This document shows positions 44,357 to 47,300 of a stretch of DNA of 64,000 nt, in pieces. The position numbers were made by a program, and so were the translations under genes. The number at the start of each line of letters is the position of its first letter. Position 1 is the stretch's first letter. Below the pieces are notes generated by a model. That model searched no databases. It was not told the origin of the DNA and worked only from the letters and a program-made list of their open reading frames with translations. The stretch lies in NCBI RefSeq assembly GCF_056746865.1, contig NZ_CM163382.1, one strand, 5' to 3'.

Positions 44357-47300
44357 TTACACCTTTTCCACATTCACAAGGAAGGACTTAAACTCTGGCG
44401 TCTGCGTGTTCGCATCACCAACGAATGGTGTTAACGTATTGGCAATAAAGCCTTTTTTCGCAACACCTTCATAGCCCCAGTGAATCGGAATACCGATGGT
44501 ATCGATATCTTTGCCGTTCGCTTTCAGCGTGCGAATACGTTTGGTCACCACCGCTTTGGCTTTGATATAGCCACGGTTGGAGGAGACTTTCACGGTATCG
44601 CCCTGGGCAATGCCAAGTTTATTCGCCAGCGACTCACCGATTTCCACAAACTGCTCTGGTTGCAAAATCGCGTTCAACAGCGCGTGTTTGGTCCAGTAGT
44701 GGAAGTGCTCGGTCAGACGATAGGTGGTTCCGACATACGGGAACTTATCGGCTTTACCCAATGCTTCGGCGTCGTCTTTAAAGATACGTGCAGCCGGGTT
44801 CGAGATAACGTTTGGATGCAGCGGGTTAGTCCCCAGCGGCGTTTCAAACGGCTCGTAGTGTTCCGGGAACGGACCTTCCGCCATCTTATCGAGGGCAAAC
44901 AGACGCCCCATGCCTTCCTGCTGCATGATAAACGGCCCGACGCCACTGCCCGGAGGCGCTGCGCTGTAGTCCGGAATATCCCAGCCGGTCCACTTGGTGC
45001 CGTCCCATTTCAGCAACTGACGCTTCGGATCCCACGGGTTACCCTGCGGATCTGCGGAGGCGCGGTTATACAGAATACGGCGGTTAAGCGGCCATGCCCA
45101 TGCCCAGCCCAGCGTGTTACCGAGGCCAGACGGATCGGCGTTATCACGGCGTGCCATCTGGTTGCCCTCTGGCGTCCAGCTACCGGCGAAAATCCAGCAG
45201 CCACAGGAGGTTGTACCGTCATCGCGCAGTTGGGCGAACGAGCTAAGTTGTTGGCCTTTCTTGACGATAACCGCACCGGTTGCCGGATCGGTAATATCGG
45301 CCAGCGCCTTACCGTTACTCTCCATCGCCACTTCTTCTGAAGATGGCTCATGCGGAATGGCGTAGTTCCAGGTCATGTTCAGCACCTGGTCCGGGTTCGC
45401 GCCACCCTGTTCGGCATACATCTTGCGCAAGCGCAGGAAGATACCGGAGAGGATCTCGCCGTCAGTCAGCGCAATCCCCGGGGCGTCCGCACCTTTCCAG
45501 TGCCACTGCAACCAGCGACCAGAGTTGACGATTGAACCGTTCTCTTCCGCGAAGCAGGTCGATGGCAGACGGAACACTTCGGTCTGGATCTTCGACGAGT
45601 CAACTTCGTTCAGTTCACCGTGGTTCTGCCAGAAGTTAGAGGTTTCAGTGTTCAGCGGGTCGATGGTCACGAGGAACTTCAGTTTCGACAGACAGCCGAT
45701 CACTTTGTTTTTGTTCGGGAATGAGGCAACCGGGTTAAAGCCCTGGCAGATATAGCCATTGACTTTGCCCTCTTTCATCATCTCGAAGTATTGCAGGACG
45801 TCGTAGCCTTTATCCCACTTCGGCAACCAGTCAAAGCCCCAGCTGTTTTCTGCCGTCGCTTTATCACCAAAGAAGGCCTTCATCATGGAGACGAAGAATT
45901 TCGGGTAATTGCCCCAGTAGTTAACCTGGCCTTCCAGCAGCGGTTTCGGCGTGTTGGCGGCAAGGTAGGTTTGCAGATCGGTCTGCTTCTCGCTTGGCAG
46001 CGTCATGTAACCTGGCAGGCTCTGCGACAGCAGCCCCAGGTCGGTCAGCCCCTGAATATTGGAGTGACCGCGCAGGGCGTTAACGCCGCCGCCAGCCATC
46101 CCCATATTGCCGAGCAGCAGCTGGATCATCGCCATCGTACGAATGTTTTGCGCACCAATGGAGTGTTGCGTCCAGCCGAGGGCATAGAGGAACGACGCTG
46201 TTTTATCGTGAGCACTGGTTTCGGCGATGTATTCGCAGACTTTCAGGAACGCGTCTTTTGGCGTACCGCAGATGTTTTCAACCACATCTGGCGTATAACG
46301 GGAAACGTGCTGTTTCAGCAAGTTCCACACGCAACGCGGATGTTGCAGCGTGGTATCGCGTTTGGCGAAGCCGTTTTCGTCCAGTTCGTAAGTCCAGGAG
46401 GATTTATCGTACTTGCGTTTTTCCGCGTCGTAGCCGGTGAACAGGCCATCTTCAAAGCCGTAATCCTCACGCACGATCAGGCTGGCGTTGGTATAGGCTT
46501 CGGTGTATTCGCGGTTGAATTTTTCATTGTTCAGCAGGTACAGCAATACGCCTGACAGGAAAGCAATGTCAGTCCCGGAACGAATAGGGGCATAGTAGTC
46601 AGCCACCGCCGCCGTACGCGTAAAGCGAGGATCGATCACAATCAGCTTCGCGCCGTTGTGAATTTTGGCTTCCATCGCCCAGCGGAACCCGACCGGGTGA
46701 GCTTCAGCGGCATTACCGCCCATCACCACGACGAGGTTGGCGTTCTTGATGTCGACCCAGTGGTTGGTCATCGCACCGCGACCAAATGTTGGAGCAAGAC
46801 TTGCTACCGTTGGTCCGTGTCAGACACGCGCCTGGTTGTCGACCGCGAGCATCCCCAGCGCGCGGGAGAATTTTTGCGTTAAATAGCCGGTTTCGTTACT
46901 CGACGCGGAAGCACACAGCATCCCGGTGGAGAGCCAGCGGTTAACAGTCACGCCTTCGGCGTTTTGCGCAATGTAGTTAGCATCGCGGTCTTCTTTCATC
47001 AGTTTGGCGATGCGATCAAACGCCTCTTCCCAACTGATTTGCTGCCATTTATCAGAACCTGGCGCACGGTATTCCGGAAACTTCAGACGGCTTTCGGAGT
47101 GGATGAAATCCACCAGGCCAGCGCCTTTCGGACAAAGTGCACCGCGGTTGACCGGGTGATCCGGATCGCCTTCGATATGGAAGATAGATGCTTTGGCGTT
47201 TTTTGCTCCGTCACCGAGGCTGTACATCAACAGCCCACAGCCTACGGAACAATAGGTGCAGGTATTACGGGTTTCGCGGGTGCGCAGCAGTTTATACTGC

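Follow-up and report, generated by a model that had tools for sequence, protein, structure and literature searches.

Selenocysteine codon UGA196 and its SECIS hairpin within a single fdoG reading frame of Escherichia coli

To our knowledge, Escherichia coli has only three selenoprotein genes, and fdoG is one of them. The selenocysteine (Sec) at residue 196 of FdoG as well as the bacterial SECIS mechanism are already established, i.e., the case is a textbook one and offers nothing new biologically. In all three E. coli formate dehydrogenases (FDHs), the ligand of the bis-MGD cofactor is selenocysteine, and all three require FdhD for maturation (PMC6239281). The paralogue fdnG is induced by nitrate and anaerobiosis; FDH-O is present at a low aerobic level (PMC6239281). 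With regard to the RNA, a SECIS element needs a stem-loop within nt 15-31, at a distance of 11 nt from the UGA, with a bulged U17 and with G23/U24 in the apical loop (PMC8659212). Here and in the following, nucleotides of the hairpin are numbered such that the U of the UGA is position 1.

The closest described systems are fdoG (b3894) of E. coli K-12 MG1655, the paralogous fdnG (b1474) with the FdnG structure 1kqf, and fdhF, whose SECIS has been dissected experimentally. We compared them with the respective locus in the window, i.e., the whole stretch of 64,000 nt that was analysed (contig NZ_CM163382.1). K-12 fdoG has the same length (3051 nt), the same TGA at codon 196, an identical SECIS region and the same neighbours (fdhD, fdoH, fdoI and fdhE). 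Nucleotide identity is 98.3% (52 differences) and amino acid identity 99.8%, with V417I and T483A as the only substitutions relative to K-12 FdoG. The flanks differ from K-12: the window carries an IS/transposase between fabY and yiiE as well as a truncated yiiG followed by a carbohydrate porin.

The paralogue is more distant, with 76.9% amino acid and 74.9% nucleotide identity between the gene of the window and K-12 fdnG. It shares the Sec residue 196, the Tat motif, the cysteine motif of the FeS cluster and the architecture, while it resides in a locus of its own (fdnGHI) without an adjoining fdhD or fdhE. Both genes have the same 48 nt after the UGA. These are part of the longest identical run of the two sequences, which comprises 71 nt (CDS positions 583-653), begins 3 nt before the UGA and extends over the SECIS; the second-longest run has 36 nt. 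The fdhF SECIS is alike in that a hairpin with bulged U17 and apical G23/U24 directly follows the UGA, and the protein context ARV-U-HGP is shared. In contrast to fdhF, the upper stem of fdoG and fdnG can form one extra A-U pair, which leaves the loop GUC instead of GGUC, and the lower stems differ in sequence and register. Also the best Rfam model differs, since the fdoG SECIS is matched best by SECIS_3 and not by SECIS_2.

On the minus strand, positions 47407..44357 form a single frame of 3051 nt, i.e., 1017 codons including the terminal TAA. Its translation contains exactly two stops, namely the TGA at codon 196 (46820..46822, minus strand) and the TAA, such that 195 + 1 + 820 = 1016 codons precede the latter. 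A six-frame ORF list reports two minus-strand entries for this region, 46820..47407 with 195 aa and 44357..46771 with 804 aa, both starting with ATG. The spacing between the two ATGs (47407 and 46771) is a multiple of 3, and hence both belong to one frame. Between the TGA and the ATG at 46771 there are 16 codons, all of them sense, which encode HGPTVASLAPTFGRGA; the apparent gap in the ORF track arises because the ORF lister begins the second ORF at its first ATG. An earlier reading based on the letters and the ORF list (in the following, the sequence-only reading) had described one gene of 1016 codons, whose two ORFs share a frame and are separated by a single TGA. Both the ORF list and the frame arithmetic bear this out, i.e., there is neither a frame difference nor a further stop between the two segments. 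That 820 codons directly past a stop stay open by chance has an arithmetical probability of about (61/64)^820, i.e., roughly 1e-17.

We thus treat positions 44357..47407 (minus strand) as a single CDS with 1016 codons and a terminal TAA, which is almost certainly an intact E. coli fdoG that encodes the Tat-exported molybdenum/selenocysteine subunit of the respiratory formate dehydrogenase-O, with UGA196 recoded as selenocysteine. A plain six-frame reading, which yields an in-frame TGA, would also be obtained if a nonsense mutation at codon 196 had made fdoG a pseudogene in this strain, and the two halves have indeed entered databases from automated pipelines, as partial proteins or as proteins of their own. 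Such a strain-specific mutation is at odds with the TGA at codon 196 in both fdoG and fdnG of K-12. Furthermore, the 80 nt around the TGA are 100% identical in 5322 of the 5433 matching E. coli records (98%); for full-length fdoG, most E. coli are found in the 95-99% identity band. The 820 codons past the TGA are open and show no decay, with just the two amino acid differences from K-12 given above, and a SECIS comes right after the TGA.

The same picture is obtained beyond the species. We scanned homologues using one genome per species and the pattern GCNCGNGTNTGACAYGGNCCNACNGTNGC, which provided at least 120 loci from gamma-, beta- and alphaproteobacteria as well as from Actinomycetota, Terriglobia and Geobacter-like genomes. 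At these at least 120 loci, the TGA is found at the same motif and the frame around it is long: the medians are 213 open codons upstream of the TGA and 819 downstream. Where the frame is short, the locus itself is short (about 1-6 kb), which suggests a truncation at its ends. Given these observations, the pseudogene explanation is already effectively refuted and we assign it a vanishing probability.

The second explanation that would dispense with recoding reads the two ORFs as two genes, one for a 195-aa N-terminal protein with Tat signal and FeS domain and the other for a C-terminal protein of 804 aa that starts at ATG 46771. Each of the ORFs begins with ATG and each fragment has database entries. 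The ATG at 46771, however, is without a Shine-Dalgarno sequence: we looked for an SD-like sequence upstream of this internal start and found none, the sequence present there (UGCUCCAACAUUUGGUCGCGGUGCG) being the 3' arm of the SECIS. This differs from the start of the full frame, where AAGGAG (47414..47419, minus strand) precedes the ATG at 47407 by 6 nt. The 16 codons that a second gene would skip are identical to FdnG and include the conserved His beside Sec. In addition, the chain of the solved homologue 1kqf runs through the region of codon 196 without a break, and RefSeq annotates a single CDS. Two separate genes are therefore about as improbable as the pseudogene, and we retain the reading as one selenoprotein gene.

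Next, we consider the identity and annotation of the gene. Judged by its sequence, it is fdoG and not fdnG, and the locus is fdo and not fdn. This follows from the amino acid identities (99.8% vs. 76.9%), from the neighbours fdoH, fdoI, fdhE and fdhD, and from the FdoI-type model matched by the gamma subunit. The equivalog model TIGR01553, which we used to test for FdoG, covers residues 2-1015 with 1572.7 bits (cutoff 814.2), and the sequence of the FdnG structure (1kqf_A) matches the product end to end with 1902 bits. The sequence-only reading had named the product as the selenoprotein FdoG, which agrees with the identity to b3894, the fdo neighbours and the position of the UGA at the Sec site of 1kqf. 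Of 5426 complete E. coli genomes, 5425 contain the 3144-nt region comprising fdoG, and several E. coli chromosomes match it with 100% identity.

For the near-identical strain 118UI, RefSeq provides one non-pseudogene CDS at exactly the coordinates of fdoG. The same reading had also expected a gene finder to call the gene wrongly, either as a pseudogene or as two genes. This holds for naive callers but not for PGAP/RefSeq, where the CDS is intact and not labelled as pseudogene. In a public protein collection, exact copies of the 195-aa fragment and of the 804-aa fragment each occur on at least 1000 contigs, and the respective clusters have 3382 (195 aa) and 6687 (804 aa) members. Since the fragments are that widespread among public proteins, naive gene callers do split fdoG. 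Some members of the 195-aa cluster (from Cronobacter and Hafnia) are misnamed "sulfate ABC transporter substrate-binding protein". An exact look-up of the 820-aa product that starts right after the UGA found no entry in the protein collection, which is expected because gene callers start at ATG. The main value of the case thus concerns annotation quality, i.e., a naive ORF reading or gene caller breaks a selenoprotein gene into pieces of 195 and 804 aa. Even RefSeq, with a correct gene structure, labels the gene at the fdo locus as "fdnG: formate dehydrogenase-N subunit alpha"; this is the name carried by the NCBIfam equivalog TIGR01553.

At the protein level, UGA196 aligns with X (Sec196) of 1kqf_A in the shared context NQARV-U-HGPTVASLAPTFGRGAMTNHW; the product itself reads NQARV-U-HGPTVASLAPTFGR around codon 196. 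Together with the following codon, UGA196-His197 corresponds to X196-H197 of 1kqf_A, which puts Sec at the position of the Mo ligand next to the conserved His. The ARV-U-HGP motif at Sec140 of FdhF matches the UGA196 context as well, such that the alignments with FdnG and FdhF agree on the sole internal stop as the selenocysteine codon. The N-terminal [4Fe-4S] motif (CxxCxxxC...C) is formed by C50, C53, C57 and C92, all within segments that are identical to 1kqf_A. The twin-arginine motif SRRQFFK, already named by the sequence-only reading, comprises residues 4-10 (47378-47398) and is followed by a hydrophobic stretch and ALA-E. We thus predict a Tat signal peptide of residues 1-33 that ends at ALA|E (47309..47407, minus strand) and aligns with the N-terminus of the FdnG precursor in 1kqf; the cleavage site of FdoG would be placed there by analogy.

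To describe the RNA element, we used both covariance models and folding. The Rfam model SECIS_3 (RF01989) matches positions 46767..46825 (minus strand) over its full length (1-59) with 84.3 bits and E=2.7e-19, which is above the gathering score of 63. The model SECIS_2 was set aside in favour of SECIS_3, as its 28.1 bits fall short of the gathering score (70). In ViennaRNA folds, the complete MFE hairpin comprises nt 6-46 (46777..46817, minus strand). It is located inside the ORF and directly 3' of the in-frame UGA, as is required of a SECIS by location. The upper stem-loop (nt 15-32; 46791..46808, minus strand) is the putative SelB-binding part, given the fdhF positions, the known SECIS requirements (PMC8659212) and the pairing across homologues. 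Its stem consists of the pairs G15-C32, G16-C31, A18-U30, G19-C29, C20-G28, A21-U27 and A22-U26, with U17 (46806) bulged and the loop G23-U24-C25, where G23 is at 46800 and U24 at 46799. The distances of U17, G23 and U24 from the UGA equal those in fdhF.

The folding energy is not distinctive when compared with dinucleotide shuffles, with z-scores of -0.77 for 59 nt and -1.11 for 43 nt. We dropped it as support for the SECIS because the z-scores are no different from shuffles and, therefore, sought evolutionary support. The support for the predicted hairpin thus comes from the covariance model and from covariation, not from energy.

For the covariation analysis, we used 72 distinct 59-mers from the at least 120 loci listed; numbers of pairs and columns refer to the columns of these 59-mers. 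The search pattern prescribed the UGA and, apart from wobble positions, also the first 20 nt (5' arm); the set is hence confined to Sec-type homologues. Among these 72 distinct sequences from the matches listed, the upper helix is paired in 99.8%. Pair 21:33 is observed as GC in 53, AU in 13 and GU in 6 sequences, and pair 24:30 as AU in 50, CG in 18 and GC in 4, both with zero unpaired cells in the 72 sequences among the matches listed. The four columns of the two pairs are the third positions of codons for Val, Ala, Ala and Leu. The respective changes are therefore synonymous, with the constraint acting on the RNA. With 0.213, the covariation score is above those of all 500 of 500 shuffles and of every slid control (0.09 or less).

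Columns 20, 26 and 27 are invariant in the 72 distinct sequences among the matches listed. For column 20, i.e., U17, this is because the search pattern imposes it. G23 and U24, in contrast, are invariant in the 72 listed homologues though the pattern left them free. The same is observed for the wobble columns 18 (ACG) and 27 (AGU/GGU), which are invariant in the 72 listed sequences though not fixed.

These observations also bear on a further explanation, according to which a standard near-cognate tRNA (for Trp or Cys) reads the UGA or translation mostly ends there, and the inserted residue is not selenocysteine. The insertion of Sec has a low efficiency and RF2 competes with it (PMC8659212); termination by-products are thus to be expected in any case. 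Nevertheless, a conserved SECIS with compensatory changes and invariant SelB determinants argues against a UGA that is merely misread, as does the retention of selC and selAB in nearly all E. coli genomes; furthermore, Sec is the ligand in all three E. coli FDHs (PMC6239281). We consider this explanation highly improbable, if slightly less so than a pseudogene or two genes, and keep selenocysteine as the residue at position 196.

With regard to the decoding machinery, there are 0 tRNA genes within the window, and selA, selB and selC are located outside of it as well. We thus checked at the species level: out of 5426 complete E. coli genomes, 5424 have selC (tRNA-Sec) and 5425 have selAB. One of these 5426 genomes is that of strain 118UI, from which the window differs at 2 positions in 46 kb. 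That is, the source genome has the Sec-decoding trait (tRNA-Sec, SelA and SelB) as far as its species is concerned.

Based on the established mechanism (PMC8124441; PMC8659212; PMC6239281), UGA196 would be decoded as follows. The mRNA just 3' of the UGA would fold as the SECIS hairpin, whose upper stem-loop (nt 15-32) would be bound by the C-terminal domain of SelB. The hairpin would thereby tether SelB with GTP and Sec-tRNA(Sec) to the ribosome while the UGA is in the A site, and Sec would be delivered at UGA196 in competition with RF2-mediated termination. Where recoding fails, a truncated peptide of 195 residues is expected. Within the full-length protein, Sec196 would be the protein ligand of the active-site Mo-bis-MGD cofactor, which would be sulfurated by FdhD. 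The FdoG precursor would be exported via Tat and join FdoH and FdoI, with electrons passing from formate to quinone. We infer SelB binding and the direction of Sec to UGA196 from the literature and from the fdnG SECIS, to which the element is identical; the insertion of Sec as such, the ligation of Mo and the 195-residue truncation product are likewise taken from established knowledge.

The gene order around fdoG is canonical, i.e., fdhD is divergent from fdoG-fdoH-fdoI-fdhE. Downstream on the minus strand follow fdoH for the iron-sulfur beta subunit (43442..44344; TIGR01582 with 478.7 bits, also annotated by RefSeq), fdoI for the cytochrome b556 gamma subunit (42810..43445) and fdhE for the formate dehydrogenase accessory protein (41884..42813; NF002925 with 603.5 bits). 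For fdoI, the FDH-O type model NF007924 scores 453 bits vs. 244 bits for the FdnI model NF007558. The sulfurtransferase gene fdhD is encoded on the plus strand (47601..48434; TIGR00129 with 340 bits). Within the intergenic region of fdhD and fdoG, a scan for promoters and terminators found none. We also considered the FdoG-1 5' UTR thermometer (RF02778) at 47378-47576, which was not accepted given 32 bits vs. a threshold of 50. The match aligns well only at the SD, the start codon and the first codons, and in the MFE fold of the candidate only the GGA of the SD is paired, within a 3-bp helix (z = -1.11).

Finally, we compared two registers for the lower stem of the SECIS. The Rfam consensus register does not fit the E. 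coli lower stem, with an A·G mismatch at 12:44 and an A·C mismatch at 8:48. The register preferred by ViennaRNA, which does fit E. coli, is shifted by one and forms 14:43, 13:44, 12:45 and 11:46, followed by a bulged G47 and then 10:48 and 9:49. Across species, 86% of the lower-stem positions are paired in the Rfam register and 84% in the shifted one (72 sequences among the matches listed), such that neither register is clearly better on this comparison. Sequences of the type GGCCC...GGCCGU suit the Rfam register, those of the type GGACC...GGUCGC the shifted one. According to the literature, SelB binding does not depend on the lower stem, and the question of the stem's register is therefore minor.

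One may still ask if the enterobacterial fdoG/fdnG SECIS has a lower-stem register unlike the SECIS_3 consensus, with the 71-nt identity of the paralogues resulting from an extra constraint at the RNA level or from recurrent gene conversion. We consider this unlikely, though less remote than any of the explanations without selenocysteine discussed above. Such an RNA-level constraint could be, for example, a tuning of recoding efficiency or a second contact with SelB or the ribosome beyond the minimal SelB-binding stem-loop. The 71-nt identity of fdoG and fdnG reaches about 20 nt past the hairpin.

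The formate dehydrogenase-O alpha subunit gene fdoG (44357-47407, minus strand) carries the RefSeq/PGAP label 'fdnG: formate dehydrogenase-N subunit alpha' in all E. coli records listed, and the fdoH and fdoI genes beside it are correctly named. That is, the fdo-locus gene is systematically mis-named after its nitrate-inducible paralogue, since the equivalog TIGR01553 bears the fdnG name. A second naming problem concerns the part of the gene upstream of the selenocysteine UGA. Its segment 46823-47407 (minus strand) shares a 90%-identity protein cluster with 195-aa N-terminal fragments from Cronobacter malonaticus and Hafnia alvei, which arose from split gene calls. 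The database entries of these fragments bear the name 'sulfate ABC transporter substrate-binding protein'. Such labels look like propagated mis-annotations, and perhaps the Tat signal was what triggered them.

For the SECIS hairpin directly 3' of the UGA (46777-46817, minus strand), the lower stem as found in E. coli fdoG and fdnG does not fit the register of the Rfam SECIS_3 consensus, where it has an A·G and an A·C mismatch, but it pairs in a one-shifted register with a bulged G. Among 72 distinct homologous 59-mers from diverse bacteria, support for the two registers is about equal (86% paired in the Rfam register, 84% in the shifted one). At the 5' end of the gene, the Rfam thermometer model of the FdoG-1 5' UTR (RF02778) matches 47378-47576 (minus strand) only below threshold (32 bits vs. 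a gathering score of 50), and its alignment is good only over the SD, the start codon and the first ~10 codons. Within the SD, the minimum-free-energy fold pairs just the GGA, which forms a 3-bp helix with the UCC immediately 5' of the AUG.

Compared to K-12, strain-specific differences flank the fdo operon at 38513-40327 and 48523-50960. Here, a partial hypothetical gene and a transposase lie between fabY and yiiE, and yiiG is a frameshifted, truncated pseudogene. After it come a gene for a carbohydrate porin and, next, rhaM, whereas in K-12 yiiG is followed by frvR. From 3721 onward, the window matches E. coli strain 118UI with 2 mismatches in 46 kb. In 118UI, the DUF945 family gene carries an IS3 insertion that is absent from the window (region 1-3726), in which 2233-3726 corresponds to positions 1-1494 of the 118UI locus. 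The sequence thus comes from a strain closely related to 118UI but distinct from it. The annotation of 118UI also lists kdgT (about 59199-60183) as a frameshifted gene.

Several Rfam matches lie elsewhere in the window. The match to the isrC sRNA (21054-21176, minus strand, 150 bits) is strong and lies within the 5' end of the IS3-like element ISEc31 (19995-21208, 118UI coordinates), and is thus borne by the IS; the gene that this element interrupts belongs to the sugar phosphate isomerase/epimerase family and sits just downstream of yihL. Also above threshold are Spot 42 (8505-8623, plus strand) between polA and yihA, ES222 (16683-16790, plus strand) in the glnA-typA intergenic region, and naRNA4 (61020-61097, minus strand) in the yiiM-cpxA intergenic region. 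The CsrC sRNA was found at 9652-9905 (plus strand, 277.9 bits). It is overlapped by a 'hypothetical protein' pseudogene of the 118UI RefSeq record (9678-9844; frameshifted, internal stop), a CDS that is probably spurious.
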